A DNA stretch of 64,000 nt from a virus, in the IMG/VR virus record IMGVR_UViG_3300009105_000002, positions 31,320 to 95,319 of that record, one strand, 5' to 3'. Positions 10,331 to 64,000 of the stretch are shown here, in pieces. Positions within the stretch are counted from its first letter, which is position 1. The number at the start of each line of letters is the position of its first letter. The translations under genes and the position numbers were made by a program. The notes beneath the pieces were generated by a model that saw nothing but the letters and a program-made list of their open reading frames with translations, made no database searches and had not been told where the DNA came from.

Positions 10331-10507
10331 ATGCCGAGAATAAAAAAATATGGCAAGGCTCACGCAGTAAGGTTTAAAAAGGATGTTGAAAAAAAGCTCC
10401 TTCAGGTCTGCATTCAAAAGGAAGTCAATAAATCCGACATCATTCAGAATGCCGTAGAGTGTTATCTCTTCAACAAAAAATGCTTTGCAAAGAGAAGATC
10501 GCTGTAA
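10331..10507 (+). CDS. Ribbon-helix-helix regulator (58 aa, absent from the ORF track)
   Basis: RBS GGAGG at 10321; MPRIKKYGKAHAVRFKKDVEKKLLQVCIQKEVNKSDIIQNAVECYL, CopG/Arc pattern. Confidence 0.7.
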   Translation: MPRIKKYGKAHAVRFKKDVEKKLLQVCIQKEVNKSDIIQNAVECYLFNKKCFAKRRSL

Positions 10508-10520
10508 AGAGAGGGCTATC

Positions 10521-10943
10521 ATGCAAAAAATGTTCAATATGATTATACATAAAGTATCAAAAAAGGGTAAATCTAATTTAACATACTCGTATCCTGAATA
10601 TAAGCTTGTTTTTAAAAGAGGGGCTGTGGCAGCGATCAAGAAAGCAAAAGGATGGAAAAGCGACAACAAGATGGCAATGGCCTTAGGGATCACAAGGGCA
10701 ATGCTTTCTGGCATGAAAAGTCAGAAATTAAACGTTACTCATAAGATAATGACGAGGCTGGCATACCAGCTCAGCAATACAAGAGGCAATTGGTGGACAC
10801 ACTTTGAAATGGTAGAATGGGGACATATACCGCAGAACCACCCATTATACAACCACGACAAGTACATGGGTCGGATACCTTACACAGAACATAGCCCAGC
10901 AGCTGCTTTTAGAAGCTTAGATTATGAGGCAGAGAGCTTGTAG
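10521..10943 (+). CDS. XRE/Cro-type HTH protein with an unknown C-terminal domain
   Basis: SDNKMAMALGITRAMLSGMKS helix-turn-helix; RBS GAGGG. Confidence 0.65.
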   Translation: MQKMFNMIIHKVSKKGKSNLTYSYPEYKLVFKRGAVAAIKKAKGWKSDNKMAMALGITRAMLSGMKSQKLNVTHKIMTRLAYQLSNTRGNWWTHFEMVEWGHIPQNHPLYNHDKYMGRIPYTEHSPAAAFRSLDYEAESL

Positions 10944-10980
10944 GATTCGGGTGGATCCTAAAAAAATCGGGAAAAAGACC

Positions 10981-11009
10981 TTGACAGGGAAAAGACCATC
11001 AGGTAAACT
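10981..11009 (+). promoter_or_regulatory. Sigma70-like promoter TTGACA-17-TAAACT
   Basis: TTGACA 10981-10986, TAAACT 11004-11009. Confidence 0.65.
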
Positions 11010-11015
11010 ATTAGG

Positions 11016-11178
11016 TGAAAAGGAGAGAAGCGCATGAAACACAAAGCCCCCAAAGTCGAATTTGAAAAGCGTGGATTTTTTCTGTCCATTAAATCCCTGT
11101 CTCTGAAAGGAACAAGACCACGCTACCTGAAAAGGTTAATGGCTTTGGGGCCCGAGTAAGAGCAGGGCTTTTTTATTT
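11016..11178 (+). ncRNA. Putative structured small RNA / leader
   Basis: Nested stems CCCCAAAGTC/GGCTTTGGGG, AGCGTGG/CCACGCT, ACCT-GAAA-AGGT, AAAGCCC/GGGCTTT followed by a T-tract; promoter immediately upstream. Confidence 0.45.
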
Positions 11179-11344
11179 GTGAAATGAGAGAGGACCGTAA
11201 AAGAGTCTTTAGAAACTGAATGGGTAGCGCCGAGAAGGCAGTACGGAGATTAAGCCGTCAGGAGTAGGCCGCAAGGTCGATTAAAACCGTAAGGGCTACA
11301 AAGCAAGGGCAAAATAGCTTGCTTGGCGTGACTTGGGTAAAGTG

Positions 11345-11406
11345 TTATCCACACGATTCTAACAATATATCGTAACTTGTTGAAAGACTTACAGTTACGC
11401 ATATAT
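11345..11406. promoter_or_regulatory. DnaA box plus IHF-like palindrome next to the dif-like site
   Basis: TTATCCACA 11345-11353; TAACTTGTTGAAA 11373-11385 (1 mismatch to YAANNNNTTGATW) within the CGTAACT...AGTTACG inverted repeat. Confidence 0.4.
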
Positions 11407-11420
11407 TTTTTAAATACCCA

Positions 11421-11448
11421 AGTTAACATAAGATACATTATAGGCGGT
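11421..11448 (-). other. dif-like XerC/XerD site with canonical XerD arm; left att of prophage 2
   Basis: Minus strand ACCGCCTATAA-TGTATC-TTATGTTAACT versus E. coli dif GGTGCGCATAA-TGTATA-TTATGTTAAAT (XerD arm 10/11, spacer 5/6). Confidence 0.85.
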
Positions 11449-11460
11449 TCGGACATACCA

Positions 11461-11489
11461 ATATTACCACAAGCCTTTATGTTTGTCAA
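11461..11489 (-). promoter_or_regulatory. Outward-facing sigma70-like promoter TTGACA-17-TAATAT (extended -10) pointing across the left att
   Basis: Minus strand TTGACA aacataaaggcttgtgg TAATAT. Confidence 0.65.
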
Positions 11490-11508
11490 GGGCAAGCTAA
11501 AAAAATCA

Positions 11509-11793
11509 CTACCTTCCTTTTAGATAATAACCCTGATGGGCGTCTTTTTCCTGACGATTACCGTTATTACCAAGCAACTCAAAGATCCTACCTCTCCATT
11601 TCTTGATTTTGCTCGATAATGGCAAATCAGGAAACTCAACCTGCAGCTCTGAATAGAAAAGCCTTGTAAGTTGGCTTACAGAAATGTGGTTGAATTTGCA
11701 GAACTCCACTACGTAGTCCTTTAGCCATACAGGTAGTGTTACAACAATCTTCACGGTTTCAGTCTCATAGCGACTCATTACCATTGGTATCAC
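11509..11793 (-). CDS. RHH/CopG-like DNA-binding protein
   Basis: KIVVTLPVWLKDYVVEFCKFNHISVSQLTR pattern; RBS AAAGGAG. Confidence 0.6.
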   Translation of the reverse strand: MIPMVMSRYETETVKIVVTLPVWLKDYVVEFCKFNHISVSQLTRLFYSELQVEFPDLPLSSKIKKWRGRIFELLGNNGNRQEKDAHQGYYLKGR

Positions 11794-11825
11794 TCTCCTT
11801 TTGGACTTGTGGCAGAGAATAAGTT

Positions 11826-11987
11826 TTATTTAAATCTTTTTCGATAAGCAAGAAAATTAGCAAGGGCCTTCCGCATGATGTCGCTTTCGTTCCAACCCAT
11901 TTCCTTTGCTAATTTCGCAACGCGCTTCTTTTGCTTTTTAGGAAGGCGAAATGTTATTTTGGAATGGTAGTTTGTGATGTCTGTCAT
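11826..11987 (-). CDS. RHH/CopG-like repressor (53 aa, near-leaderless)
   Basis: KITFRLPKKQKKRVAKLAKEMGWNESDIMRKALANFL. Confidence 0.75.
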   Translation of the reverse strand: MTDITNYHSKITFRLPKKQKKRVAKLAKEMGWNESDIMRKALANFLAYRKRFK

Positions 11988-11997
11988 ATGTAAGACA

Positions 11998-12062
11998 AGT
12001 TTATCATATAACCATAACTTTGTCAAGAAAATTGTTGCTATTGAAAAAAGGCATGGTATAAT
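11998..12062. promoter_or_regulatory. Divergent promoter pair
   Basis: Minus: TTGACA(12026-12021)-17-TAAACT(12003-11998). Plus: TTGCTA(12035-12040)-16-TATAAT(12057-12062). Both have an extended TG and lie a few nt from their start codons. Confidence 0.6.
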
Positions 12063-12067
12063 TAGAA

Positions 12068-12874
12068 ATGATGGGTAAATTTGGATTGTTATTACTCCTC
12101 TTGTTTTTTATAAGTGGTTGCGCTACGCTCAATTTTTCTGCCAATTATTATTCCCCTCCATCTAATTATAAAAGTGAAGTAAATAACTTGTGGACAGAAA
12201 TAAATTCTAACTTTTCTCTAAAATATAAATACACATTACGCATTGTTGATGACAATGAATGTCAAATGCCGGGTATCCCCGAAAACGACAATGGAGTTGT
12301 TAAATTGCCAGTTAATTATTTAAAATATGTATATCAAAATTATTACGATAATAGATTTACGATATTAACATGTTTAATTGTTCATGAATTATGCCATAGT
12401 GAATATGATTTACCTGACAACCCACCAGAAACTCATTTCCAGACTGATTTAAAAGCAATTTCTTTGTTATCCTGCTATACTACTATTTCAGCAGAAGATT
12501 ATTACAAAAGCATATATGTAGTAAAAAACTATTGGTTTGCCCGCAAGGGTATTGCCGGACATGCCTTTAATGTTGGTTGGAACGCTCTCCAAATAGTATC
12601 TTTAGTCAATGGAGGTTCTTATTGTTTTATGGATTGGTTTGCTACAGATTTAGATGTGCGCCTAAACCTATTATCAAGCAAATATGAAAAAATGCCACCT
12701 TGTTTTGCTATTACCAAGGATTCTAAAAATAATACTAATTCAGAAAAATCAGATTTTAAGTTTGCTTTTAAAAAGACAGACTACTATAAAATAGAAAGCT
12801 TAATTTATCCTGACTATACTGCGGGATTGGATGTATCTGAAAAAACAAGCATTAACATAGTGGGTGAAAAATAA
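12068..12874 (+). CDS. Lipoprotein with a zincin HExxH motif (moron)
   Basis: Lipobox FISG-C; LIVHELCH; AT-rich; opposite strand to the structural operon. Confidence 0.7.
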   Translation: MMGKFGLLLLLLFFISGCATLNFSANYYSPPSNYKSEVNNLWTEINSNFSLKYKYTLRIVDDNECQMPGIPENDNGVVKLPVNYLKYVYQNYYDNRFTILTCLIVHELCHSEYDLPDNPPETHFQTDLKAISLLSCYTTISAEDYYKSIYVVKNYWFARKGIAGHAFNVGWNALQIVSLVNGGSYCFMDWFATDLDVRLNLLSSKYEKMPPCFAITKDSKNNTNSEKSDFKFAFKKTDYYKIESLIYPDYTAGLDVSEKTSINIVGEK

Positions 12875-12877
12875 AAA

Positions 12878-15800
12878 CTAAGGGGAGATTTTAAGTTCCA
12901 TGTATAGGGCTTTAACGTCTTCTTCTATTGGTTTATCGGCATCTCTGTATTTCTTTCGTAAAACAGGGAGAATTTCTTTTCTTTCATCATCAGTAGCTAT
13001 CGAATAAACATTCAATCCTTCTTCAAGGGTGAGCCTTTTAAACGACTCCACGAAAGGAGTTAAGCGCGAATCTTTTGCAAGCTTCCTATAGCCGTCCCTC
13101 CCAAGCACCTCTATGGCCTCCTCTTTAATCTGCCATGGCCGAACCTCTCCTTTTCTGATTCTGTCTTTCTGCACCTTGCGATACAAGGTTTTTGCAAAAT
13201 CCGCTTCTGTGCGAGTAGTATCCGGCATCCTTTCAGAGATATAGCGATACATAAGTTTCTGCGCATTGCTCCGGGCAACATAGGAAGGCGCCGCGATTAT
13301 GCCGGTAATGGATATCAAAATATTTAACAGCGGATCAGGAGAGGTGAGTTGCATTCTTTCATAGTTCTTAAAAGAAAACGGTTTGGCGTAATTCTTTATG
13401 TGGATTGTCCTATCATAAAGTTGCTCCATTAAACCATCCTTTTCATCATAAAGCATGACATTATAAAAATCCTTATTCCTAAACTGCTCCATGGAAAGTC
13501 CGATTAGGGGGTGCCTTTTGCTGACAAATGTTTGTAAAGGCCTTGTAGCGTAGGCATATATATCCTTTGCGTAAGTAGGTAGAGATAACCGTTCGTCGGA
13601 TCCATCGGGGTTCTTTCTGCCAGTTCTTGGGAAGAAATAGTCCCTTATTTCTCTTGGGCGCTCCCCTGACAAGACATATGTTGCAATTGCCCCTATGATC
13701 ATATATACTATCATCGCGCCGATCCCATACGCCATTTTATGGCTTAATAGCTTATCTCCTGCTCTTATACGGGCTCCTGCAGTTCCTAAATCAACAGGTA
13801 TGCCCCCATATTCCCTCCAAGAGCCCAAATTCCACCCTACCGACCTCACAGAGGCCATCAAAACGTCTTTTAAGGTCTTATTCCAGAACAGGTTGTCATA
13901 TATCAGCGATCCCATGCGGTTATCCACGCTATCCCATACCTTTGTAAGCATATACCACAATTGCTCGTCGTTTATTTCTCCGGAGGCAGCACGCTCCATT
14001 TCGCTTTGTGCGAGTTTAGAAAATAGCCCTAATTTGCCGGTAGGAACATACCACTCCATAATCGGCTTGGCAGCGGTTTCTAAAATGGATCCAAATATAT
14101 TTAAAGGTAATTTCGCCATAGCAGCTATCTTCTCTATGCCCGATCCTACCAAAATATCCTTAAATGTCTTCTGTAACGCCTTGATTTGTTGGTTATAATA
14201 GAACACATCTATCCTATCTCTGCCTCCAGCTCTTATCATCGTATCTACTTTAAGCCTTAATTTCGGATCCTGTATAGTATCCATTTGTTGCTTATATGCC
14301 CTCTTAATCCGCGAGCCTTCCCATAAGACCTTAATAGGTGCTATTGGAAATGTAATCAAATCTTTCAATCCTTGATAGAGCTGTCCTTTTATAGTCAGTT
14401 TCCGAAGCCCTAATCCTACCGTAGAAGCCCAAACATCAGTAGTAACGTTTAAGCCGTGAAAAGCCGACAACGATAAATTGACTTGATTTAGTATGTTTCC
14501 AAACCCCCTCACTAAGTTATATCCTGTCGCTATGAGCTTATTGTCGCTTGTCCTTAATCCCGGCGAAAGGTGATTATTTATGATTAAAGCCACATCTTTA
14601 GGTGCGTAATAATGTCCCAACGTAGTGAACCCGGGTATCTTTATCTTGGCGTCAGCCTCCCCTAATACCAGAGAAGGTCTTATGTCAAGGATCGGCCTTA
14701 ATTGACCGTGCTCATTTAAAAACTTCGTGAATAATTCGTATATATCCGGCGCTAATTTCTTGAATTCCTCCGGCGCATGGATCAGCGCTTCCAGTAAAAC
14801 AGCCTCTTTTTCCCTGTATTTCCTTACATAGTTTTTATAACTCGCAGGTGCGTCTATACCTTTATACCTTGCATCGGCAAGCGCTCGCCATTGCTCGTTT
14901 ATATTTTTTCTCCACTCAATCGCCTCTTTGGTAGGCTTTACTTCTTCTGTTCCTACCTTCTTGCCCTTGACATAGGTGTGGACATAGGTGTCTTTATACG
15001 CCGTGAAAGTATTGAACAGGTTGAACCTATACCCTAAAATATGCCCTATTTCGTGGGCCAATACACTTTCCGGACTGGCAAATTTAGTCCTTACTGTTGA
15101 AGGCCATTGCGCATACCCCCAACGAGTGCCTCCTATGGTTACAAACCTCTTGGTATCTATTTCAAGGGATTTCGCCACATCCATAAGTTGTTCCACTAAA
15201 ATGCTGTCAAACGCCTCTTTCTTCGTTATCTCCGGAGGCATATAGACAGTAAAAGCGGTGTCGTTTATCTTTGCAAACCCTTGAGGTGGCGTCTTGCGAG
15301 AATATACAAACCGGATCATACCCCTATTTTTTAAATCCCTTATGACGTTTTGCGCCATTACATACCGGTCTACTTCGTGGAGTTTTAGCAATACAAGATC
15401 AACAGGATTATTGCTTACCGGTGTAAGCCCGGCCTCAAGGCCTTCTTTAATCGTCATATAAGTTCGTTCTTTAAGAAAACCCTTCGTGCCTTCCAACCTC
15501 TTTTTCCCCATAATCTTTGCTATCACGCCTTTTGCGTGCTCAAATCTCTCCCATATATGAGGAAAATAATTCTTATAAAAGTTTTGTAATTGCCCTTTCC
15601 CAAGATTTTGAACCGACTCTCGCCTTTCATCAAGGAGTTTTCTCATTACGTCGCTGAACGCTTGAAGTTTTTCATTTTCTTGAGGAAGGCCTTTTTCCAT
15701 ATTATCTATGAATTTATAACTATCCTCCTTGTTCATCCAAGTAAAGGCGCGGTGGGCTTTCTTTAACGCCTCAATAGCAGTAACGTCTTTATGTGCCAAC

Positions 15801-18800
15801 TTCGCTAATCCACCCCGCATAACTTGAGAGGTTACTTGCGCGAGATTTGATACCGACGCCGGAGATAGGATTTTAAGAAATTCCTTGATATAGTTTATTC
15901 TTTCAGGAGGAGGCATACCTGCCTCTACCTTTACTCTATCTGTTATTCTTACTTTTTCCTCTTTTGATTCGATCGTGCCGTATCCTTTTGGTGCTTTAGA
16001 GGCGACAGATGAACCGCCTGCGCCACCGCCTTTGACCGGTTTTTTATAAAAACCCACTGTAACTCCATAAATAAAATCTTTATCAGGTGTTTCTACGAAT
16101 TCCCCCCCGATCAGTTCTAACCCTTTTTCTTTAGCTTTTTGTTGCAATATTTTAGGCGTCATATCCTCAGCATAATTAACTTTCTCCTGTGCTTCATATT
16201 CTCCAAATCCTGTGCCTGCGTAGCATTTATCACACCACCCCTCGACATATACATTGCCCTCCCAATAATTTATCTTATTGGGATTATTTACATCAGGAAC
16301 TTTATCAGTAATTGCTTTAGCGCCCATCTCTTTACTTGGGGTTTCGGCGGCTTTCTCAACCCTCGGCTTAATATGTTCCTCTACTGCTTTTTCGGAAATC
16401 TCTACGCCCACACCCTTTCTGCCGGTAGCAACGGCTTGTTCTATCGTTACGCCGGAACCAGCGAAAGGATCAAAAACCACTTCGCCTTGTTCAGTAGTCA
16501 TTTCGATCATAGCTTTTAACATCTTGCGGGGTTTCTCGGTTTGATATCCCCTCGGCCTCACAAGTTTAAAGTTAAGATTTTTTATAGGTTTTGTGAGTTT
16601 CCCGCTAAAATTAAAGACAATTATTCCTTCCGGCTCGATTATATCGCCCCTCATATTACGAACTCTTGTAATTCCGTCTTTTTGTAATTTAGTATATTCA
16701 CCCTTACCGACGGCAATCATTTCTAATCTATTGAATACATCTGTATATCTCTGCATTTCCTTTAATCCGGATTTGGCTTGGGAATACATATAAATCAAAG
16801 GAGTATCTGATGTGCGCATTACTTGTCCAAGCCTTTCAACCATAGTATAAAATTGTTCAGGCGTTATATAGTCATACTTAATCCCTCTATTGCCTCCGAT
16901 AACTGCCGGTGTTTTATACGGGACGTCGAGGAATATCATATCAGCTTTAAATCCTTGATCTACGAGTTTCGGCACAATTTCAAGAGCATCGCCGGTATGT
17001 ATATAGGCAACATCTCGCCCTTGATTACGCAGAACATATACGCCCTTACCTACTCTTTTAAACGTGCCTTCCTTGGCGCCTACGCCTACGATCCTGCGAA
17101 CATTAGGTTCGAGGATTTCAGTTTCTTTGGCTATCTGCTTTATGGATTTAGGTTCTTCCTTGACGGCTTCTTTGACTTTTTCTTTTTGAACGATCTTGCC
17201 TTTTTCAAATACAAACTCTTTTTGTGTAGCGTCGGGCTTTTCTGCTTTTAATTCTTTTATTAAATCTTTATGCTCAACCTGTTCCTCGGTAGGTCGGAGA
17301 GGCGTCGGAGACATTTTGGCTTCCGGCGCAAGGGAGGGTTTAACAATCCGTGCCTTATCCTCATTTAAAACTATAATCTGATCTGCAAGAATTGCTTTGA
17401 AAAACTTATGGTCGGTTTCTTTTGCGATTTTCCGAACATTTTTAAAAACTACTGCGTCATACTTTTTAGCGAGTGCGTCAAAAAACTCTTTCTCTTGATG
17501 AAGTGCCGGATGTCCAACCTCTGCCTCGGCTTCCCTATATGCCTCAATACTGTCAACAACCTTTATCTTCGCCCCTTTATCTATCTCGTATTCAACAGAC
17601 TCAAGGTTTTTTATTACCTGTTTTGCGCCTACCTTAGCCATCCATTTCTGCTTATCGTAATCATAAAAGGTTTCAGCACCAGCTTTTTTCAACTCTTTTA
17701 AATGTTCTAATCCCCCTACTTCAACAATTTTATCTTCGCCTTCCCTAATAGAAGTTTTTCCCCATATCCTATCTTCTAATGAAAGATATATCCTGTCCCC
17801 AGCAAATCTACCAAGTTTTTCCTCCCCTCCTAATGATCCTGTGCCGTGAATAGGTTTCTTGGTAAAATCAAACCTTTCCCCTCGTTCCAATGCTTCCTTG
17901 CCTTCTTTTGTTGTGAAATGTTTAGCGCGGAGAGGCTTTTCTTCTGATTCACCCGGTTGCTTTTCTGTTACCCATTCGGGTTCTCGTTCTGTATCTTTCT
18001 TGCTTGCGCCTTCAGGATCCCCCTCTGCTTCCCCAGCTCGTAGAGTTTTTTCAATCTCGGATTCTGAGACTTTTTCTTTCCTGAGTTGCTCTCGTTCTTC
18101 TCTGATTCGTTCTTCATTTCCGTATCCCTCCGATAGATTTTTGTAAATCTGTTCTTGCTTTTCTGTTAATTTTTCACCCTTCTCTTTCTTGTCTATTATA
18201 TCAAGTGCTTTCTTTTTAGTCAAATTTGTCCAAGCATCTCTGAACCATTGCGGAAATGTAGATCCTTGACCAATCCATTCGCCTGTTTCTGTCTTTATGC
18301 GCTTGCCGGCTTCTCCCCTTTCTATCTCGGATTTCATACCCATAATTAAATCTTTTTCTTCTTGAGGGATTTTCGGTGCAGAAGGCTCCACTTCCTTAAC
18401 CGGCTTAAACTTCTTCTCGCCCTCTTTAGCCCACTCTTTTACCCATTCAGGGATTTCGGGCTTCTCTTTTGCAGATTTAACAATCTGATTATATTGTTTA
18501 TCAATCAATCCGCGTGCAAATAATTCATCTATAATCCTATCTTCACTATAACCTCCTTCGCCCTCCCCGAAGGCATCGCCCTTTAAAAATGTTACCATTC
18601 TCCATAGGGGGGAATCTGGATTTTTTAATTCTATAGCTACTAACTCCCGTATTTGTTCTCTTTGTGATTCCTGCAATTTGTTGAATTTGTGATGGCGTCT
18701 TTCGTGCTCAGCTATATATTCTTTATCAGCAATGTTTTCTTTATTTATTATTATAACATTATCATTAGGGCTTATATCTCCCAAGTCAAAATCTATAACC

Positions 18801-19942
18801 CCTGCTCTCCGAGCCATAATAAGAGAATTGCCATCTATTGCCATACCACCCACTGGTCTTAAATTTCCCATTTGTTTGATTTGTGCAGGAGATAATTCTA
18901 ATATTTTTTCCCCTCCCTCGCTTGATTTAATTTCAGGCTTAACCGGAGGTAGCGGAATAGGTTGAGGGGTAACAGCTTTGACGGCTATCTTGGGCGGCGT
19001 AACTTTCACACCTTTTGCGGCTTGATCTAAAAGTTGTTGAGAGGGAGGCCCAAGTTCTATCGGCTTAACTACCTGCTGAACACCGGGTATATTGGCTGTT
19101 GGGCCGGTTATGGTTTGTCCGGCACCTGCTGTATATTCCGGAGTCGTTTTTACAATCTTATACATTTCCCTTGAAAGTCGAGATATTTTATCAAAGGTTC
19201 TTGGATCAAGCGTCCGCTTTAATTCCATTATGGCTTTTCTATCAAGAACACCTTGTTTTATGGCTCTATTTATATTGTCACCAACCTCAAATGTAATTTC
19301 TTTTGCGTTCCGGATTTGCTTTACAGTTTCATATTTTGCGAATTTATAGGCAGAAGGGCTTACCGCCATAAGATATAGATATCCAGAGGGGGTTCCTACG
19401 GCGTTCCCTAAAACTGATAATGCTTTTGAGGCACCGGGATTATATCCTAATTCATTGAATAATTGCTCATAACTATAAGGGTGTCCTTCATCTGCTTCGG
19501 CTAATCCTTGTCGCCAAAACCCCCTTACTCTTATGGGTGTTAATGGCTTAAAAGTTTGTCCGGAAATAGCTTTCCCCCACTCCTGCATTACTCTCGCTGA
19601 TCCGCTTGACTCTCGGGTTTGTGCTGCACCAAGTTCTTTTAAAGGAAACGCTTTAGCCGGATAACTTAACCCGGCTGTCAATACTTCGTGCATACCCATT
19701 TTAGGTATATTTGTGCCTTTGTATTTCTCGGGGGAAATCATTGGCATTAAGACTTTATTAAGGGCTATTTTTGAGGTTGACTCTGCTGCTGGACGGAGTT
19801 TTTCCGGCACGGCTTCTTCTACCTTTTTGACAGAAGCCATCTGTTCTTCGCTTTCACGCAGATATTTTTTACGAGGATCTATGTCTTCCCTGACAGGTTG
19901 GAACCCAGCAAGCCCTACTTCTTGAACGGGGATAAAAGGCAT
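12878..19942 (-). CDS. 2354-aa polyvalent ejection protein (two HExxH zincin motifs, ART-like domain, HTH, beta-class amino-DNA methyltransferase)
   Basis: HERRH 18692-18706; HEIGH 15041-15055; DVPY 16916-16927 precedes FAGSG 16451-16465; last gene of the structural operon. Confidence 0.8.
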   Translation of the reverse strand: MPFIPVQEVGLAGFQPVREDIDPRKKYLRESEEQMASVKKVEEAVPEKLRPAAESTSKIALNKVLMPMISPEKYKGTNIPKMGMHEVLTAGLSYPAKAFPLKELGAAQTRESSGSARVMQEWGKAISGQTFKPLTPIRVRGFWRQGLAEADEGHPYSYEQLFNELGYNPGASKALSVLGNAVGTPSGYLYLMAVSPSAYKFAKYETVKQIRNAKEITFEVGDNINRAIKQGVLDRKAIMELKRTLDPRTFDKISRLSREMYKIVKTTPEYTAGAGQTITGPTANIPGVQQVVKPIELGPPSQQLLDQAAKGVKVTPPKIAVKAVTPQPIPLPPVKPEIKSSEGGEKILELSPAQIKQMGNLRPVGGMAIDGNSLIMARRAGVIDFDLGDISPNDNVIIINKENIADKEYIAEHERRHHKFNKLQESQREQIRELVAIELKNPDSPLWRMVTFLKGDAFGEGEGGYSEDRIIDELFARGLIDKQYNQIVKSAKEKPEIPEWVKEWAKEGEKKFKPVKEVEPSAPKIPQEEKDLIMGMKSEIERGEAGKRIKTETGEWIGQGSTFPQWFRDAWTNLTKKKALDIIDKKEKGEKLTEKQEQIYKNLSEGYGNEERIREEREQLRKEKVSESEIEKTLRAGEAEGDPEGASKKDTEREPEWVTEKQPGESEEKPLRAKHFTTKEGKEALERGERFDFTKKPIHGTGSLGGEEKLGRFAGDRIYLSLEDRIWGKTSIREGEDKIVEVGGLEHLKELKKAGAETFYDYDKQKWMAKVGAKQVIKNLESVEYEIDKGAKIKVVDSIEAYREAEAEVGHPALHQEKEFFDALAKKYDAVVFKNVRKIAKETDHKFFKAILADQIIVLNEDKARIVKPSLAPEAKMSPTPLRPTEEQVEHKDLIKELKAEKPDATQKEFVFEKGKIVQKEKVKEAVKEEPKSIKQIAKETEILEPNVRRIVGVGAKEGTFKRVGKGVYVLRNQGRDVAYIHTGDALEIVPKLVDQGFKADMIFLDVPYKTPAVIGGNRGIKYDYITPEQFYTMVERLGQVMRTSDTPLIYMYSQAKSGLKEMQRYTDVFNRLEMIAVGKGEYTKLQKDGITRVRNMRGDIIEPEGIIVFNFSGKLTKPIKNLNFKLVRPRGYQTEKPRKMLKAMIEMTTEQGEVVFDPFAGSGVTIEQAVATGRKGVGVEISEKAVEEHIKPRVEKAAETPSKEMGAKAITDKVPDVNNPNKINYWEGNVYVEGWCDKCYAGTGFGEYEAQEKVNYAEDMTPKILQQKAKEKGLELIGGEFVETPDKDFIYGVTVGFYKKPVKGGGAGGSSVASKAPKGYGTIESKEEKVRITDRVKVEAGMPPPERINYIKEFLKILSPASVSNLAQVTSQVMRGGLAKLAHKDVTAIEALKKAHRAFTWMNKEDSYKFIDNMEKGLPQENEKLQAFSDVMRKLLDERRESVQNLGKGQLQNFYKNYFPHIWERFEHAKGVIAKIMGKKRLEGTKGFLKERTYMTIKEGLEAGLTPVSNNPVDLVLLKLHEVDRYVMAQNVIRDLKNRGMIRFVYSRKTPPQGFAKINDTAFTVYMPPEITKKEAFDSILVEQLMDVAKSLEIDTKRFVTIGGTRWGYAQWPSTVRTKFASPESVLAHEIGHILGYRFNLFNTFTAYKDTYVHTYVKGKKVGTEEVKPTKEAIEWRKNINEQWRALADARYKGIDAPASYKNYVRKYREKEAVLLEALIHAPEEFKKLAPDIYELFTKFLNEHGQLRPILDIRPSLVLGEADAKIKIPGFTTLGHYYAPKDVALIINNHLSPGLRTSDNKLIATGYNLVRGFGNILNQVNLSLSAFHGLNVTTDVWASTVGLGLRKLTIKGQLYQGLKDLITFPIAPIKVLWEGSRIKRAYKQQMDTIQDPKLRLKVDTMIRAGGRDRIDVFYYNQQIKALQKTFKDILVGSGIEKIAAMAKLPLNIFGSILETAAKPIMEWYVPTGKLGLFSKLAQSEMERAASGEINDEQLWYMLTKVWDSVDNRMGSLIYDNLFWNKTLKDVLMASVRSVGWNLGSWREYGGIPVDLGTAGARIRAGDKLLSHKMAYGIGAMIVYMIIGAIATYVLSGERPREIRDYFFPRTGRKNPDGSDERLSLPTYAKDIYAYATRPLQTFVSKRHPLIGLSMEQFRNKDFYNVMLYDEKDGLMEQLYDRTIHIKNYAKPFSFKNYERMQLTSPDPLLNILISITGIIAAPSYVARSNAQKLMYRYISERMPDTTRTEADFAKTLYRKVQKDRIRKGEVRPWQIKEEAIEVLGRDGYRKLAKDSRLTPFVESFKRLTLEEGLNVYSIATDDERKEILPVLRKKYRDADKPIEEDVKALYMELKISP

Positions 19943-39430: not shown

Positions 39431-39459
39431 TTGACAAATAAAGGAGTTGAGTATATACT
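39431..39459 (+). promoter_or_regulatory. Sigma70 promoter TTGACA-17-TATACT with TTGAGTA boxes
   Basis: TTGACA 39431-39436, TATACT 39454-39459; ATG at the expected +1. Confidence 0.75.
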
Positions 39460-39465
39460 TATGGT

Positions 39466-39621
39466 ATGGCAAGGGTTAATTTCAACATTGACAATGACGA
39501 CTACAAAGAGCTGAAAATCTTTTCAATCCGGCAGGGCTTTGTTACCTTGACGGATCTTTTTAAATCGTGGATCAAGACAGCACTTCATCAGCAACGGGAA
39601 CAGGACAAAAACAAGAAGTAA
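39466..39621 (+). CDS. Leaderless RHH regulator (51 aa, absent from the ORF track)
   Basis: MARVNFNIDNDDYKELKIFSIRQGFVTLTDLFKSWIKTAL, ParG/CopG pattern. Confidence 0.7.
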   Translation: MARVNFNIDNDDYKELKIFSIRQGFVTLTDLFKSWIKTALHQQREQDKNKK

Positions 39622-40925: not shown

Positions 40926-41474
40926 ATGAAAAAAAATCTCTGTAAAAACTGTTTAGGCAAATTGAGCAACTGGGCCTATAAAATCCAAAAGGTGCACAGG
41001 GAACAAAACGGAAATGTCCTTGCAAGAGTAATCACATGGCGCACAAAGAAAACTATCTATCTATGCAAGCATTGTTGGGACAACTATATTGATTTTTCAA
41101 AGGTAGTAGTGTTTTTGGTTGTCTTAACCCTATCCTCTTTGACTTCGGCCCACGCAATACCTGAAAACAAAGCAGTCAGGGCCATAATTGGTGAGGCCGC
41201 CGATCAGGGCTATCGCGGTATGCTTGCTGTGGCCTGTGCAATCCGCAATCGCGGCCATTTAAAAGGCGTTTATGGCCTTAAAGCTAAACACGTTGACAGT
41301 GAACCCGAATGGATTTGGAACATAGCCAAAATAGCTTGGCAGGAAAGCGCCTCGTGTGATATTGTCAACGGTGCGACGCATTGGGAAAACCTAACCTATG
41401 GCACGCCATATTGGGCTAAATCAATGGAAATTGCCTGCAAAATTGGCGCGCATACATTTTTCAAGGAGAACTAA
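40926..41474 (+). CDS. SleB/Hydrolase_2-like lytic transglycosylase with a TM/signal segment
   Basis: IIGEA (catalytic Glu), AVA..IRNR, GATHW, P.W, IGAHTFFK. Confidence 0.8.
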   Translation: MKKNLCKNCLGKLSNWAYKIQKVHREQNGNVLARVITWRTKKTIYLCKHCWDNYIDFSKVVVFLVVLTLSSLTSAHAIPENKAVRAIIGEAADQGYRGMLAVACAIRNRGHLKGVYGLKAKHVDSEPEWIWNIAKIAWQESASCDIVNGATHWENLTYGTPYWAKSMEIACKIGAHTFFKEN

Positions 41475-58116: not shown

Positions 58117-59651
58117 GATTTTATCTCCTTATCAAGTAAATTTAAGTCTTTTTGAATCATGTCCTTAAACACGTTTGATTGTAAAGTGTCTTCATAAAAC
58201 GGTGTTTTTGTTTGTTCGGCAAGTGTTCGGATAAGGTAGATTCTCGCCTCATACAGCTTCATTTGGGATTTCAGCATTAAAAGTTGATTGTAAAAAGCTA
58301 CCTCCTTATCAAAACCTCTTAATTCTCCTTCCCACCTTTTTCTGAAATGGCTTACCGGCGACTGAATTGCTTTTACAAGGTTATCCCGCGCCATACCCCA
58401 TTGCTTCTGTGCTCTTAAAACCGAATAGAGGTTGTAATAAGGGACATCATATTGTGGGTTGATCCTCGTAGCGACATTCCACATATCTACGGCGGATCCA
58501 GTTAACCCACACTTCATATAGGTTGCCCCGAGATTTGCTAATGCTACTTCGGATCGTGGGAAGTTCCATACGTTAGACTGGTAAAAAGTAATCTCGTTCT
58601 GATATGCCGGTAGTTGCTGCCACGTCCTCATTAGGTAAAGACCTATTACGAAAGCCAAGGCCACGGGATAAGGCGCGAGGAATTTCGCCATGATTATCCA
58701 TAGCCCTATGCTTGCGATATATACATACCTTTCCGCAACAAACTGGTGAATTGTGATCCAATTGAGGTAAATCCAAAGAAAAGCAAAATACCATACTATT
58801 CCAAACCTCACTACGCTATCACCGAAATAAAATAAGCACCCAAACCCTATTAGGAGCAAAACCCCGAGCCAAAAGCGATTATTCTCTTTTTCTAAAACAG
58901 GAGTATAATGAAAGCCCCACACATGGTAAAGCCCCATATTCGACGGAAAAAGCGCTAATTTTGTATAATAAAGGAGGCTTTTTGTCGCCACAATGATTTT
59001 TCGCCAACTCAATTTTGTTGAATTCCCCATACCTTGCGACTCAAAAGTATCCGTCCTTAAATTTATAGTATGCCTCACGATCTGAAAACCCATGGCCAAG
59101 GAAAGAAGTGCGCCTAAAATAATATACGAATAATGACCGAGCCATAATGTTATTACAAAAGTGGCAAGCATTGTAAAATTGCCTATGATCGCCAATGCAA
59201 GGAAGATAGCATAGAGAATTATGGAAATTCCCCAAGCGTCCGGAATGCCTAATGTCGGAATCTGCAAGGCCACTAAAGCCATAAAAAGCCCTACAATATA
59301 CCCTATTCCAGAAACCCAGCCTACTGTTTGAGCACCTAACGGCGTTACTGCGAACAAAAGACAGGTAATCCACGCCAAATGCTCTCCTATTATGTTCCTT
59401 AAGAAAAAATAAAGCATGACACAGGCGGCGTTCTTTAGGATCACGTTAAAACAATGATGATGTCGAGGGTTTTTATCGGCTACCTTAAAGCGCAGGTGTT
59501 TAAAATAATCGCCATAATAAGCATTTGCCGGCAGTTTACCGTCATACCGCACTATGCCTTCCATATCGTCAATTACAAAACCTCCCTTCCAAACAATATA
59601 CGAATAAGTCAGCCATACAAGCGCTGTAATAGATATGATATGCAAGATCAT
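58023..59651 (-). CDS. TMTC-like GT-C membrane glycosyltransferase with C-terminal TPRs
   Basis: FVIDD in the first loop, H..NV.L, LFA..P....V.W, AERY.Y..S.G, then TPR-like ALANLG..Y...G....A. Confidence 0.8.
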   Translation of the reverse strand: MILHIISITALVWLTYSYIVWKGGFVIDDMEGIVRYDGKLPANAYYGDYFKHLRFKVADKNPRHHHCFNVILKNAACVMLYFFLRNIIGEHLAWITCLLFAVTPLGAQTVGWVSGIGYIVGLFMALVALQIPTLGIPDAWGISIILYAIFLALAIIGNFTMLATFVITLWLGHYSYIILGALLSLAMGFQIVRHTINLRTDTFESQGMGNSTKLSWRKIIVATKSLLYYTKLALFPSNMGLYHVWGFHYTPVLEKENNRFWLGVLLLIGFGCLFYFGDSVVRFGIVWYFAFLWIYLNWITIHQFVAERYVYIASIGLWIIMAKFLAPYPVALAFVIGLYLMRTWQQLPAYQNEITFYQSNVWNFPRSEVALANLGATYMKCGLTGSAVDMWNVATRINPQYDVPYYNLYSVLRAQKQWGMARDNLVKAIQSPVSHFRKRWEGELRGFDKEVAFYNQLLMLKSQMKLYEARIYLIRTLAEQTKTPFYEDTLQSNVFKDMIQKDLNLLDKEIKSCAENELNLFGKTQEAGSSNSLQQGSSKSTS

Positions 59652-59839
59652 TTAACCCTTCCTTTCTTTAATGTTCGGCAGATAGGACACGGTGTCCACA
59701 TTCGTCCATGCCGATATTGTTTACCCCTCCCGCAATGGGAGCAGGTTTTTACAGTGCCTTCCAATTCCTCTGGATTATGTGCTTTTTTATAGCGTTTCAA
59801 TATTGATGGATCGTTAGTTCCTAATTCTCGAATACCCAC
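59648..59839 (-). CDS. Zinc-finger small protein
   Basis: CSHCG...CPIC. Confidence 0.5.
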   Translation of the reverse strand: MGIRELGTNDPSILKRYKKAHNPEELEGTVKTCSHCGRGKQYRHGRMWTPCPICRTLKKGRVK

Positions 59840-60020
59840 TTCATTCCTTTTTTGGCACTATCTCAACGCCATCTGTTATTCCCAAATCATTAAGCGCCTT
59901 TTCTAAATATGGCAACACACCTCTTTCACAATGAAGAACAATTAAGAGGTCGGATTTATCCCAACCCTCTTGTGTCCTTATCTCCTCAAGCATTTCTTTT
60001 AACTCTTTACTCATAGCATA

Positions 60021-60048
60021 TATATAGCTGTCGTTTTTTTTAAAAAAA
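60021..60048 (-). repeat. 28-bp inverted repeat, right copy
   Basis: Reverse complement of 39081-39108; ends 6 nt before an ATG at 60014. Confidence 0.9.
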
Positions 60049-60107
60049 GAGTTATTTACATAACTATTTATTTAAATACAAAACCCTTTAAACAGGTTTA
60101 ATACACT

Positions 60108-60494
60108 TTAAACATCTTTAAAGAGTTTGAGGATTTTGTGCTTAAATCTACGACATTTGTCGGTATTTAGCATTACATCCTTATCTGTAAGCCGGCAGAG
60201 TTTAAACCCCCTTCTTTTCATAAGACGCTCTCTCTTTCCTTCATGTTCCCTCCAGCCCTTATTTCTGTTTGCATGTGAAGATCCGTCAATTTCAATGGCG
60301 ATTTTATGTTTAAGTATGCAGAAATCTATTAAAATAATAAAGGTCGAGGAATAAAAGAGAGGGTATTGGAATATGTGCTTGATTTTGTGTTTCTTTAGGA
60401 AAGTTCGGAACTTTTTTTCGGAGAAGGTAGCTTTCCGCCGGTTTTGCTTTATGTATTTTTGGCAAGTTTTTCTTATCGTTTTACGAAAGTCCAT
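60108..60494 (-). CDS. DUF559/Vsr-like endonuclease
   Basis: T.SE, FQ, IDF, IEIDG..H, G....R. Confidence 0.8.
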   Translation of the reverse strand: MDFRKTIRKTCQKYIKQNRRKATFSEKKFRTFLKKHKIKHIFQYPLFYSSTFIILIDFCILKHKIAIEIDGSSHANRNKGWREHEGKRERLMKRRGFKLCRLTDKDVMLNTDKCRRFKHKILKLFKDV

Positions 60495-60793
60495 TTCTCA
60501 TAATCCTTTTCAAGGCTCAATTTAAACTTACGAGGCCCTTTCCACTCTATGCGCACCATGCAAGAATGTTCCATTTCAATTAGGATATTTTTAATATACT
60601 CCTCCGAGATTCGCAATGTAGTCGCAAAAGAAGTAACGTTTGAGATAACTTCTTTCCTATTCCAACCATATGTCAGCCGGATAATAAGCAAAGCAACTCT
60701 AAGCCAAGTAGGATTTGTTATGTATTTATAAATAGCTTGTAAAAGCTCATTCGCTATTTTAGTATAGCCGTGTTCGATCTGCGGACTTGCCAT
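60473..60793 (-). CDS. Lambda O-like replication protein, N-terminal wHTH only
   Basis: MASPQ.E.GYT.IANELL...RLTYGWN.K...KDYE.W. Confidence 0.8.
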   Translation of the reverse strand: MASPQIEHGYTKIANELLQAIYKYITNPTWLRVALLIIRLTYGWNRKEVISNVTSFATTLRISEEYIKNILIEMEHSCMVRIEWKGPRKFKLSLEKDYEKWTFVKR

Positions 60794-60794
60794 T

Positions 60795-61094
60795 TTAATT
60801 GCCCCTTATGTTGAATTTACTATCTGCGTCTATCAAGCCCTTACCTTTAACAACAAGGTTTTCAAGCCATATTTCTCTATTGTGGTTTAAGGCGTCAAAT
60901 ACAGGTTGCCACCTTACAAAATTCCCCATGCCCGGTTGGAGGAAAGTCCTCCAAGACTTGCCTTCTGTATCCTTGAAGAACATCCAATACATCAGTTTTT
61001 TGTTGTATTTGCTGATGTCTTTTTGTATCGAATAGGTTTTGCGGTTACATATTTGTTGACAGTGGGGACAATGGAAGTCATTTCTGCCTCGCAA
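60795..61094 (-). CDS. Hypothetical protein
   Basis: ORF between RecT-like and RepO-like genes; true start uncertain. Confidence 0.4.
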   Translation of the reverse strand: MRGRNDFHCPHCQQICNRKTYSIQKDISKYNKKLMYWMFFKDTEGKSWRTFLQPGMGNFVRWQPVFDALNHNREIWLENLVVKGKGLIDADSKFNIRGN

Positions 61095-62190
61095 GGTCTT
61101 GACATCTGCGACAGAAAATTTTATTCATAAAGTTCTTTTTAGAATACTCCACTACCCTTGGATCGTTTATTACGGTTCCACACTTGCCGTTTTGACACAC
61201 TATAACCTCCGGCGCCTTTTCCTCTGGAGGTAGCACTTCCGGCACTTCCTCCTTAGCGTTTAATTCAGCCATATAGTTTTGGCAATGTTCAGTAACTTGC
61301 GCCAGTTCCTTTTTGTTAAGGTCGCGCATCATCGCCTCTTGGTTGTTCTTAAAGTAGTTCATAAGTTCTTCGCCGGTTTTACAGGTGGAGGCACCTTCCC
61401 TATATTGATCAAGCTTGGTCTTGGGTGTGTTGCCGGTTACCAATTCGCTATATCGAGTAGCTATGGTTTCTTCTGCCACAAGCCTATCAGCGTCTATAAG
61501 TTGCTTTAATTCAGTATCTATGCTCCTCTTAAAGAGGTTGACTTTCTCCGGATCCGTTATCTTGGGGAGTTCTTCGCGAATTGTGAACATCAGTTCCGAA
61601 TAGTGCTCTTGATACTTCTCGCCTTGGAGCATTTCCTCTGACTTTTCAACAGTAACGGCTATTTCTTCATTGTCTAAATGAGCCTCGATTTCTTCTGGAG
61701 TGTAAATGCCTGCGATAACGTCGGGAGCAACTACTCTCGCACACATAGAGATAGCCCTTGCTCTGCACATATTCTTTGGATATTTCTTCCAATTATCCTT
61801 GTAGTTAAGGCCGGCATTTCTTGCGTCGTCCAGAGAAAAAGTAACCGTGTAAGGCGACATACCTTTTCTTTTCATCATAACCGTGCATTTCTTATCCGTA
61901 TCGTCAATTTTGATATCCTCAAGTTTCTCGCTTTTATAGAGGAGTGAAAGCATAAGTTGAGACGCCAAAGCAGTCTTGTTATCTACGATAAAGATATTCC
62001 GGATCGCCTCCATAGGGGGAAGCCCAAGTTCTCTGCCTGTCTCCATTACCAATACTGCCTGTTGCGCTGTCCGGATTTGTTTCGGCAGGAACCCTGTCTT
62101 GACCATTTGATCTGCCACCGCAAGATTTTTATTCCAATTTGTTGATAGGTCGTTCTCGCTCCTTACTGCCAATCCTCTTTCTCCGTTCAT
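61078..62190 (-). CDS. RecT/Red-beta-like ssDNA annealing protein
   Basis: G.ELGL.PM.A, A..AGL....W..YP..M..ARA, G.YT.EE; C-terminal zinc ribbon. Confidence 0.85.
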   Translation of the reverse strand: MNGERGLAVRSENDLSTNWNKNLAVADQMVKTGFLPKQIRTAQQAVLVMETGRELGLPPMEAIRNIFIVDNKTALASQLMLSLLYKSEKLEDIKIDDTDKKCTVMMKRKGMSPYTVTFSLDDARNAGLNYKDNWKKYPKNMCRARAISMCARVVAPDVIAGIYTPEEIEAHLDNEEIAVTVEKSEEMLQGEKYQEHYSELMFTIREELPKITDPEKVNLFKRSIDTELKQLIDADRLVAEETIATRYSELVTGNTPKTKLDQYREGASTCKTGEELMNYFKNNQEAMMRDLNKKELAQVTEHCQNYMAELNAKEEVPEVLPPEEKAPEVIVCQNGKCGTVINDPRVVEYSKKNFMNKIFCRRCQDLARQK

Positions 62191-62474
62191 AATTCAATCC
62201 TCCTGTTTAAGTCAAGAAGAAGGTGGTTTGTGTTTAAAATTCTTGTCTTTATTTCCTTCAATACGTCAGTTAATGTTGCACTTGGAGGGGGAGGGGGTTC
62301 TTTAGCAATAGCTTCCCCTGGTGTAGGAGGGGTGGGAGTCAACGCCGATTGAATTTTTCCTTCAAGCTGTGCTACAAAATTTGACTGCTGATCCAAGACA
62401 TTTAAAATCTGCTCAACTTCCTTAGTTACTTTACTTTGAGTCTTTTCCGTTGTTAGCCCTCCTGTTCCATTCAT
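62187..62474 (-). CDS. Hypothetical protein
   Basis: RBS AGGAGG; Pro-rich linker. Confidence 0.5.
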   Translation of the reverse strand: MNGTGGLTTEKTQSKVTKEVEQILNVLDQQSNFVAQLEGKIQSALTPTPPTPGEAIAKEPPPPPSATLTDVLKEIKTRILNTNHLLLDLNRRIEL

Positions 62475-62632
62475 AAAACCTCCTATTGTTTATTGAAACT
62501 TTTTTCAATTTCCAAAGCCTCGTCGCGTGATTTAGTTACTTCAACGCGAATCATTTTAAATATATTCTTATAAATTTGACGCGTCTCTTTGATTAAATCT
62601 ACGACTTCCAGCATCGCGGATTCTAAATTCTG

Positions 62633-62839
62633 CTACACATCTGCTTTTGATATTTTCGCCTTTCGAGGTTTTCCTTTTTTTTCGATACCAAGAAGGCGCC
62701 GGACAACTTGTATTTTCCAAGACGGGAGAGCAATGCCATAACTCTTGAAATGCTGTATTATGTCCTTTGGTTTCCTTTGCTCCCTAACCATACTTTCCAA
62801 TTGTTGCTGATGAACGTCAGATAAAATAAGCTTCGCCAT
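62633..62839 (-). CDS. Small basic putative DNA-binding protein
   Basis: RBS AGGAGG; HTH-like helices. Confidence 0.45.
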   Translation of the reverse strand: MAKLILSDVHQQQLESMVREQRKPKDIIQHFKSYGIALPSWKIQVVRRLLGIEKKGKPRKAKISKADV

Positions 62840-62849
62840 AATAACCTCC

Positions 62850-63476
62850 TTATATTCTTACCGAGAGTTCATCCTCTTGGTAGACTTCAATTCCATCTAT
62901 CTTAAGATCGTTAGACGCGACACCGTGGACATTTTTAGAGTGAGCCCTCAAAAGTCCGTTAATCTTCTTCTCGTCTAATATCCAATATTCCTTAGGGATT
63001 TTGCTTTCATCTGCCACTTTCCACTTCCATACTTTCTTGGTAAAAGACTTGCCAAGCCCTGAATCTATCGTTACCTTGGGCTTTTCGTTGACAGTAACGG
63101 GCACATTGGAAGTATCAGTCTCAAGAAAACTACTGGTAATCTCTCTTTTTTCCTTTTCTTCCTGTGCTTTCCGCGCCTGTTCTATCCTTACCCAACCGAG
63201 CAGTTTATCCTTAAGGATTGCCTCCACCTCTTTTAACGGCGAAGTAATTACCTTGAATAGATCGTTGATGGTCTTAACGTGATCCTGCAACGGCTTGACA
63301 AAAAACTTTCTCCTGTCTTCTGCTATCTTAAAATACTTCTTACACTCCAAGAGAAGATTATTGGCGTGTTTTGACTCTAACTCCGTTTTCACTTCCATTG
63401 ACTTTGCTTTGGTGATCAAGGCAGGAACATTTTTCTCAACAATTTGGACTTGTTGATCATTGCGAATATCTTCCAT
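62850..63476 (-). CDS. Coiled-coil early protein (Gp157/Gam-like position)
   Basis: E..RK....P......IN..F; C-terminal W.W.V.D..KIP.EY...I.G. Confidence 0.55.
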   Translation of the reverse strand: MEDIRNDQQVQIVEKNVPALITKAKSMEVKTELESKHANNLLLECKKYFKIAEDRRKFFVKPLQDHVKTINDLFKVITSPLKEVEAILKDKLLGWVRIEQARKAQEEKEKREITSSFLETDTSNVPVTVNEKPKVTIDSGLGKSFTKKVWKWKVADESKIPKEYWILDEKKINGLLRAHSKNVHGVASNDLKIDGIEVYQEDELSVRI

Positions 63477-63485
63477 AAACCCTCC

Positions 63486-63599
63486 TTAGTTTAAAAAGAA
63501 ACTTATCGTTATAATCACGGTCGCTAATAAAATACAAACACCCACAACTTTTGCATTAAACGGAGCTTCTTCTAAGCGTCTTTTGTAATAGTCGTCCAT
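63486..63599 (-). CDS. 37-aa single-TM peptide (absent from the ORF track)
   Basis: RBS AAAGGAGG; MDDYYKRRLEEAPFNAKVVGVCILLATVIITISFFLN. Confidence 0.55.
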   Translation of the reverse strand: MDDYYKRRLEEAPFNAKVVGVCILLATVIITISFFLN

Positions 63600-63731
63600 A
63601 AAACCTCCTTTTTAGCGTGGTGAATAAAAGGTGAAAAAATGGTGAGGCGAAAGGTGTCCGAGGAGCATTGGTGCTAACCAACGCTTGTGGGGGAAAGCCC
63701 CACCCTTCCGCCCCATGTTGAAGGCGGACAT

Positions 63732-63772
63732 AAAAAAAAAGAGAGGATAGAGTAAAATCTATCCTCTCTTTT
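63732..63772 (-). terminator. Intrinsic terminator, possibly bidirectional
   Basis: AAAAGAGAGGATAG/CTATCCTCTCTTTT stem; T9 follows on the minus strand. Confidence 0.7.
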
Positions 63773-63872
63773 ATTTGTGTAGGTGAATTTTTTTTTACCC
63801 TCAGACATATTTTCGTTACCTTCTATTCTCTTTATGTCCGAAGGTCTATTTAATTCTGGTGAATTATTTTAA

Positions 63873-63900
63873 GTATCTGTCAAGATACATTATAGGCGCT
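63873..63900 (-). other. dif-like site with degenerate XerD arm; right att of prophage 2
   Basis: Minus strand AGCGCCTATAA-TGTATC-TTGACAGATAC; same spacer and near-identical XerC arm as 11421-11448. Confidence 0.8.
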
Positions 63901-64000
63901 TTGGCTTCACCTCGAATACAGCTAGTTTATAGGGTTCAAGCTCTGCTCAGGTGTCTACGCATCCCTTTATAAACCGCTGAGCGAAGCGAAGTAATTTTTT

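Follow-up and report, generated by a model that had tools for sequence, protein, structure and literature searches.

The DNA analysed here, referred to as the window, is a stretch of 64,000 nucleotides from the IMG/VR record IMGVR_UViG_3300009105_000002 (bases 31320–95319 of the record); coordinates are those of the window unless given as contig positions. Three dif-like sites in direct orientation split the record, at contig 461–488, window 11421–11448 and window 63873–63900. The second, dif-type site (site 2, 11421–11448) is both attL of prophage 2 and attR of prophage 1, and reads on the plus strand as XerD arm AGTTAACATAA, centre GATACA and XerC arm TTATAGGCGGT. Site 3 (63873–63900), the attR of prophage 2, is followed by host flank from 63901 and has a degenerate XerD arm, GTATCTGTCAA, with the centre GATACA and the XerC arm TTATAGGCGCT; placing the right attachment site here corrects its position in the original prediction. 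Prophage 2 covers 52 kb (11449–63872) and encodes its own large terminase and major capsid protein.

The 24-mer TTAACATAAGATACATTATAGGCG was found as a single copy in each of 25 Candidatus Omnitrophota genomes, with strongly conserved flanks, and a shorter dif core was present in 56 of 401 genomes sampled from the Omnitrophota phylum. The left flank of the contig and the last 100 bases of the window match the host left and right dif flanks, and a junction free of phage 2 was recovered in a contig from the public marine metagenome run X1, in which AGTTAACAT is joined to 63882–64000 with no mismatch. The record encodes no tyrosine or serine recombinase (PF00589, PF00239) and no DUF3653/XafT protein (PF12375), and XerD-family genes scored above the curated cut-off in all five host genomes tested. 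From the sites, the flanks, the phage-free junction, the recombinase-free record and the host XerD, we conclude that two unrelated tailed prophages are arranged in tandem inside the dif site of a Candidatus Omnitrophota host. The reconstructed attP of phage 2 combines a good XerC arm with a degenerate XerD arm, and we infer that integration at the host dif is carried out by host XerCD. The exact attP junction had no match in IMG/VR. Two marine/seawater metagenome runs (X1 and X2) hold an identical 209-nt piece of phage 2 (59427–59635) together with the phage-2-free junction; these DNA runs cover only 59427–59635 and 63882–64000 of the window, and the search listed no RNA run containing it. Given both the phage piece and the phage-free junction, the population behind the assembly was probably mixed for phage 2.

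Prophage 2 is without a recombinase of its own and is bounded by dif-like sites at the host dif, as expected of an IMEX. IMEX of the TLCphi type lack an integrase and integrate at dif, with an attP whose XerC arm is good and whose XerD arm is degenerate (PMC6744903). Phage 2 shares the arm pattern, the missing integrase and the integration at dif, but it is a 52-kb tailed phage and has no DUF3653/XafT. IMEX membership is the context of the finding described below, not the finding itself.

The host ORFs nearest dif on the right lie on the minus strand, facing dif, in 19 of 21 genomes, and on the left plus-strand ORFs predominate next to dif. The genes on either side thus point towards dif, and transcription from the host would enter the early operon of phage 2. 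The host dif loci (L003–L027) share a module conserved at the nucleotide level, with ~110 nt on the left of the site and ~45 conserved nt on the right. Its left part, also present at window 11341–11420 and contig 381–460, holds a DnaA-box-like sequence, TTATCCACA, a plus-strand promoter-like TTGACG-17-TATACT that ends exactly 27 nt before dif in many genomes, and a hairpin with a T run, which shows covariation between two sequence forms. This module may be a transcription unit crossing dif, or may supply accessory sequences for Xer. The right end of prophage 1 carries its own copy of the host left module (73% identity between 11341–11448 and contig 381–482), which is closer to the variant of L007, L019 and L024 than to that of the present host.

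Promoters and regulators at the left end of prophage 2

A sigma-70-type promoter, here called P11489, lies on the minus strand at 11461–11489, directed leftwards and out of prophage 2. It consists of a TTGACA hexamer (11489–11484), a 17-nt spacer ending in TGG and a TAATAT hexamer (11466–11461). The −35 element matches the consensus at six of six positions, the spacing is optimal, and the −10 element matches at four of six, keeping A2 and T6, so that 10 of 12 positions agree, in addition to a TG at −15/−14. The predicted start (11454–11456, 5–7 nt past the −10 element) is 6–8 nt from the outermost base of the XerC arm at site 2 (11448), and the −35 element starts 20 nt past the stop codon of the RHH2 ORF described below. 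The original prediction of an outward-facing TTGACA-17-TAATAT promoter with an extended −10, starting ~6 bp from the XerC arm, is confirmed in both respects.

Sites were scored with a crude textbook-style matrix of our own, which is E. coli-like. On this scale P11489 scored 14.6–14.8 and ranked third among the sigma-70-like sites on both strands of the 95,319-bp record (190 kb of strand), where ~0.45 sites as good would be expected in shuffled sequence across the whole record. At three such sites per 190 kb of strand, ~8e-4 sites of this quality would fall by chance within 50 nt of a given point in a given orientation. The region is rich in promoter-like sequence, with 21 matches in 10500–13000 against 7.9 expected. 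None of the right dif flanks of 25 host genomes has a comparable minus-strand site, and the focal promoter is therefore specific to the phage. Inheritance of P11489 from the host dif flank was ruled out by its absence from the equivalent position in those 25 flanks. To our knowledge, Omnitrophota promoters are uncharacterised, and the host is uncultured.

A 9-mer, CTTGACAAA, is common to the promoters at 11489, 12026 and 39431, the three best of phage 2, and occurs four times in the window against 0.64 expected, which argues that the three form one functional promoter class. The third member (39431–39459, plus strand) precedes a 51-aa ORF (39466–39621) that appears RHH-like by eye only and had no match in Pfam or PHROGs. 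On these sequence features P11489 is most likely a genuine host-type (sigma-70) promoter, whose firing is predicted.

The last gene before P11489 is RHH2, a 94-aa ORF on the minus strand (11509–11793) that is weakly RHH/HicB-like. No homologues of RHH2 were found among 5.8 billion proteins, and a related-locus search with the protein was also empty, so that these searches gave no close relative of the left end. It is preceded on the same strand by an RHH_1 (CopG/Arc-type) regulator ORF (11826–12026, with a likely start ATG at 11987), which scores 28.5 bits in Pfam against a cut-off of 20.5, has PHROG matches to CopG-/Arc-like repressors and lies 340 nt upstream of P11489. In front of this RHH operon is P12026 (11998–12026, minus strand; TTGACA, 17 nt, TAAACT, with TG), second in the record on the same E. 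coli-like matrix. Since P12026 is equally strong and lies just upstream, P11489 is not the sole candidate promoter. No XRE/CI-type HTH (HTH_3) was matched anywhere in the record, so the original statement that no CI-type repressor is evident holds literally, but a CopG/Arc-type regulator is encoded upstream of P11489, and with RHH genes so close protein-based repression is available.

Several further features mark this end. No terminator was found after the RHH operon within the left end of prophage 2, and no plausible ORF crosses the att site (the RHH2 stop ends at 11509 and att begins at 11448). The motif ATGTCCGAA on the minus strand at 11448–11456 spans the predicted start of P11489, with further copies at 63723–63731 (minus strand) and 63834–63842 (plus strand). 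In its 9-mer form, ATGTCCGMM, it is present five times in the window (1.2 expected), and three copies cluster around att: one over the predicted start, one inverted, 61 nt before the terminator described below, and one just past the U tract of that terminator. These are candidates for an operator, or for the arms of an RNA stem around attP.

Back to back with P12026 is P12035 on the plus strand, which faces a lipoprotein-like ORF (12068–12874, plus strand) with a signal peptide and lipobox Cys and a HELCH motif, located in a 31%-GC patch. This ORF had no family match and is a candidate lysogeny-expressed moron. Beside the regulatory end lies a 2354-aa ORF (12878–19942, minus strand), in which DNA methyltransferase-like motifs (FLDVPY, FDPFAGSG) were recognised by eye in the middle of the protein. 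The best sigma-70-like site of the record (18223) is inside this ORF.

Terminator, leader and early operon at the right end

The opposite end of prophage 2 carries, on the same strand as P11489, the head of the early operon (60473–63599, minus strand). It opens with the ATG at 63599 of a 37-aa ORF (63486–63599), followed by an exonuclease-like gene of 208 aa (62850–63476), RecT (61078–62190) and a RepO-N/DnaD-like gene (60473–60793), all on the minus strand. Its place and strand are as originally described, and 273 nt separate site 3 from the first early ATG. An identical 208-aa protein is encoded in six contigs; a related-locus search with this protein alone returned nothing, and the early region had no blastn match in the phage database.

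With the E. coli-like matrix, by which weak promoters could be missed, no minus-strand sigma-70-like site above 8.5 was found in 59500–63900, against 14.6–14.8 for P11489, which upholds the earlier observation that no comparably good promoter precedes the early genes. Inspection by eye of 63600–63736 gave no convincing sigma-54-like or alternative −10 element. As the matrix is E. coli-like and Omnitrophota promoters are uncharacterised, the lack of an early promoter in these searches carries little weight.

Between attR and the early operon lies an intrinsic terminator on the minus strand (63728–63772, stem 63772–63737), with a perfect 15-bp stem, a 6-nt loop, a run of 9 U and a folding energy of −21.3 kcal/mol. 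From its sequence and position it is probably an insulator against host read-in, a role that makes sense given the convergence of host genes on dif. Downstream comes a structured leader of 137 nt (63600–63736, minus strand; folding z = −3.3), in which three TCACC repeats, two of them as TTCACC, are spaced by 11 nt (63618–63650, minus strand) upstream of the first early ribosome-binding site. These repeats may serve as iterons of the RepO-like initiator or as sites for an activator. More copies of TTCACC occur at 63782 and 63858.

Transcription from ~11454 in the reconstructed circle would run 134 nt before the terminator stem, ~179 nt to the end of the U tract and ~307 nt to the first early ATG. 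The proposal that circularisation joins the promoter to the early genes through attP, and that integration silences them, therefore stands as geometry, with both on the same strand and ~307 nt apart, but it had missed the terminator between them. With a strong terminator between attP and the early genes, P11489 cannot simply feed the early operon. A search of the window and both att regions against Rfam, at gathering and E-value thresholds, gave only sub-threshold matches from the terminator hairpin; between P11489 and the terminator no antiterminator was matched in Rfam, and the attP-spanning RNA belongs to no detectable family. Neither a tRNA nor a tmRNA was detected by ARAGORN. Each prophage has a gene for a SleB/Hydrolase_2-like cell-wall hydrolase whose N-terminus carries a membrane segment (40926–41474 and contig 542–1036), and in prophage 1 this gene is the very first after the att-proximal terminator.

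Relatives and other dif-linked elements

The closest relative of the early genes (locus L049) has 64% identity and is followed by a RecT-like gene (by eye). It has a TTGACA-17-TATACT promoter 160 nt upstream of the early gene and no terminator. In a second relative (L052) a TTGACA-17-TATTAT with TG lies 52 nt upstream of the early gene, and in a third (L054) a TTGACA-17-TATATT is found at −718, with a 70-aa ORF between it and the early gene. The early genes of this phage group are thus normally served by consensus host-type promoters. Alignment of the upstream-region and leader DNA of L049 to phage 2 was uninformative, and the large upstream protein of L049 has no detectable relation to the 2354-aa protein. 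The small ORF of L054 was considered as RHH-like by eye and set aside, as it has no Pfam support and is unlike RHH1 and RHH2. One further genome (G004) holds fragments of a relative only, without the upstream region.

Prophage 1 has the mirror-image layout, with a plus-strand gene array from contig 579, and a 13-pair terminator (contig 521–552) lies between site 1 and the ATG at 579; the 17 nt from this terminator to the ATG leave no room for a promoter. At its right end, promoter-like sites are directed across site 2. An unrelated viral contig, G405, has an intact attP, ACCGCCTATAA-TGTATC-TAACCTCAATT, located between tail-fibre-like genes and genes for Erf and an exonuclease. On one strand, G405 has in order TTGACA-16-TATACT, an 88-aa HTH-like gene, attP, a 17-pair terminator and the early ATG. 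Here attP begins 18 nt past the stop of the HTH-like gene, the early ATG follows 18 nt past the terminator, and the promoter lies 520 nt upstream of attP, with none beside it. The HTH-like gene had only Pfam matches below the cut-off.

An 11-kb element in a further genome (G162; locus L109, G162:C3:194600-207200) is flanked by direct dif-type sites at 805 and 11784. An HTH_17 gene stands directly before the junction and the gene array starts directly after it. As in phage 2, the XerD arm of its attR is degenerate and ends in GTCAA. One of its ORFs contains a P-loop ATPase motif, and the element may be an Omnitrophota IMEX resembling a filamentous phage. Prophage 1, G405 and the G162 element lead us to conclude that, as judged from gene and motif order, a layout of regulator and promoter, attP, in some cases a terminator, and a promoterless array is recurrent in dif-linked elements of Omnitrophota.

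Possible transcription across attP

State-dependent transcription across att is already known for ICEs. In integrated Tn916 the conjugation genes are without a promoter, and circularisation is needed to bring them under Porf7, which lies at the other end; a terminator, T1, positioned just within the promoterless end shields them from host promoters, and canT, a cis-acting RNA downstream of Porf7 established by experiment and having no defined motif, lets the element's own transcripts through (PMC11658703). Phage 2 likewise has outward same-strand promoters at the opposite end (P11489 and P12026), which the circular junction joins to the early genes, and a terminator that lies just within the apparently promoterless end and faces read-in from the host. 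It differs in being a tailed phage at dif without its own recombinase, in having no canT-like antiterminator found in Rfam, in having RHH proteins as its regulators and in a second promoter that abuts the att site. Promoter switching that depends on the state of the element is described for ICEKp1, ICEclc and ICEEc1, where only excision lets a 3′-end promoter transcribe through the joined ends and where stem-loops in the 5′ UTR attenuate read-in from the host; these elements make use of a host tRNA promoter, and the gene served is that of the integrase (PMC13023037). Phage 2 has no integrase, and its entire early operon would be the target.

Two further precedents come from a phage and a plasmid. 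Integration-dependent immunity is known from mycobacteriophage BPs and its relatives; the attP of BPs is situated within the repressor ORF, next to the integrase gene, and a degradation tag is lost on integration (PMC3694055, PMC4557955). Both BPs and phage 2 are temperate tailed phages in which integration at attP itself alters, or would alter, the regulatory state, but the attP of phage 2 is intergenic, from 60 nt past the RHH2 stop, and cuts a transcription unit rather than a protein. Integration-dependent immunity of the BPs type was accordingly rejected for phage 2, whose attP is outside the repressor ORF and which has no adjacent tyrosine integrase (PF00589, PF00239). In the cer site of ColE1, Pcer lies inside the Xer site and makes a short RNA, Rcd, in a system that senses plasmid dimers; in the model for its control, the proximity of XerCD represses the promoter (PMC4393325). 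Both cases pair a short transcript, predicted in phage 2, with a promoter that lies beside or within the XerCD-bound arms and may be damped by the bound proteins. The sequence and target of Rcd are unrelated, and in phage 2 the transcript would run across the site and perhaps on into genes. In a limited literature search we did not find state-dependent transcription across att described for tailed phages or for XerCD/dif elements.

As the architecture matches the experimentally established design of Tn916, we read P11489 as a real promoter of an early transcription unit that is cut by attP, such that integration would uncouple the two and the terminator would insulate the early genes, and we give this reading a probability of about 45%. 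The circle would carry, on one strand, P12026, RHH1, RHH2, P11489, attP, the terminator, the structured leader and the promoterless early operon. Integration at dif would cut this unit at attP and leave the promoters and regulators at the left prophage end, pointing outwards, with the early genes at the right end, facing a convergent host gene and shielded by the terminator. P11489 would fire, transcripts from it or from P12026 would get past the terminator by leak or by a cis-acting antiterminator as in Tn916, and in the lysogen XerCD bound to the full dif site (attL, +7 to +34) would damp P11489. The passage of phage-started transcripts through the terminator would be the decisive step. Against the proposed reading stand the terminator with its 15-bp stem and U9, 134 nt past the predicted start; the RHH regulators and the repeated ATGTCCG motif, which suggest that conventional protein repression may carry the switch; and the possibility that the terminator simply ends the RHH operon.

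This last point leads to an alternative that we regard as rather unlikely, in which P11489 is real, its transcript ends at the terminator and the early operon uses an unrecognised, perhaps activator-dependent promoter in 63600–63736, for example at the TCACC repeats. P11489 would then yield an attP-spanning RNA of ~180 nt, made only from the circle, which could be a regulatory RNA like that of Pcer/Rcd or the 3′ end of the RHH operon. With no terminator in the left end, the one across attP would be the natural end of that operon. It is strong and has its U tract on the minus strand, the 11-nt-spaced TCACC repeats and the structured leader stand upstream of the first ORF, and Pcer provides a precedent for a short RNA made from within an Xer site (PMC4393325). 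However, only 17–18 nt lie between terminator and ATG in G405 and prophage 1, which argues against a separate early promoter there, the phage-2 leader has no sigma-70-like site, and the attP-spanning RNA has no detectable family.

That the P11489 match is non-functional, or a relic in A+T-rich intergenic DNA to which early transcription is unrelated, we consider unlikely, given the ~8e-4 such sites expected within 50 nt of a given point in that orientation and the extended −35 context common to two promoters that precede small genes (RHH_1, and the 51-aa ORF that is RHH-like by eye only). In its favour is the excess of promoter-like matches in 10500–13000 (21 against 7.9 expected), and the location of the top-scoring site of the record inside the 2354-aa ORF indicates that high scores are possible with no obvious role. 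A main function in recombination appears very unlikely. RNA polymerase at P11489 would cover the XerC arm (+7 to +17) and exclude XerCD, so that promoter activity against XerCD binding would set the timing or direction of integration and excision. The evidence for this is positional: the predicted start is 6–8 nt from the XerC arm, the conserved promoter-like site in host left flanks also aims at dif from 27 nt away, and in attL the host-type and phage promoters would face each other across the site, in keeping with the Pcer model of repression by XerCD proximity (PMC4393325). In G405, on the other hand, the promoter is 520 nt upstream of attP and not beside it. Such a role would also be compatible with P11489 as the promoter of the interrupted early unit and does not exclude it.

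A broader and rather doubtful proposal is that lysogeny in the dif phages of Omnitrophota is held largely by topology, not by CI/Cro, with Xer recombination at dif as the switch. Only in the circle would transcripts from phage promoters carry whatever passes the terminator, and the terminator at the end would kill convergent read-in. The design would be that of Tn916, evolved independently in tailed viruses and seen in at least three unrelated phages.

If P11489 does drive an early unit cut at attP, the early genes of tailed phages could be silenced by being cut from their promoter at attP, and recombination would itself be the lysis-lysogeny decision. Induction of such prophages would have to start with excision, and they would appear repressor-less to annotation pipelines. 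The principle known from Tn916 and other ICEs, of an end promoter, an insulating terminator and antitermination, would extend to viruses and to elements that borrow XerCD. That three dif-linked phages of an uncultured phylum have this layout suggests that the strategy may be general among bacteria with small genomes.
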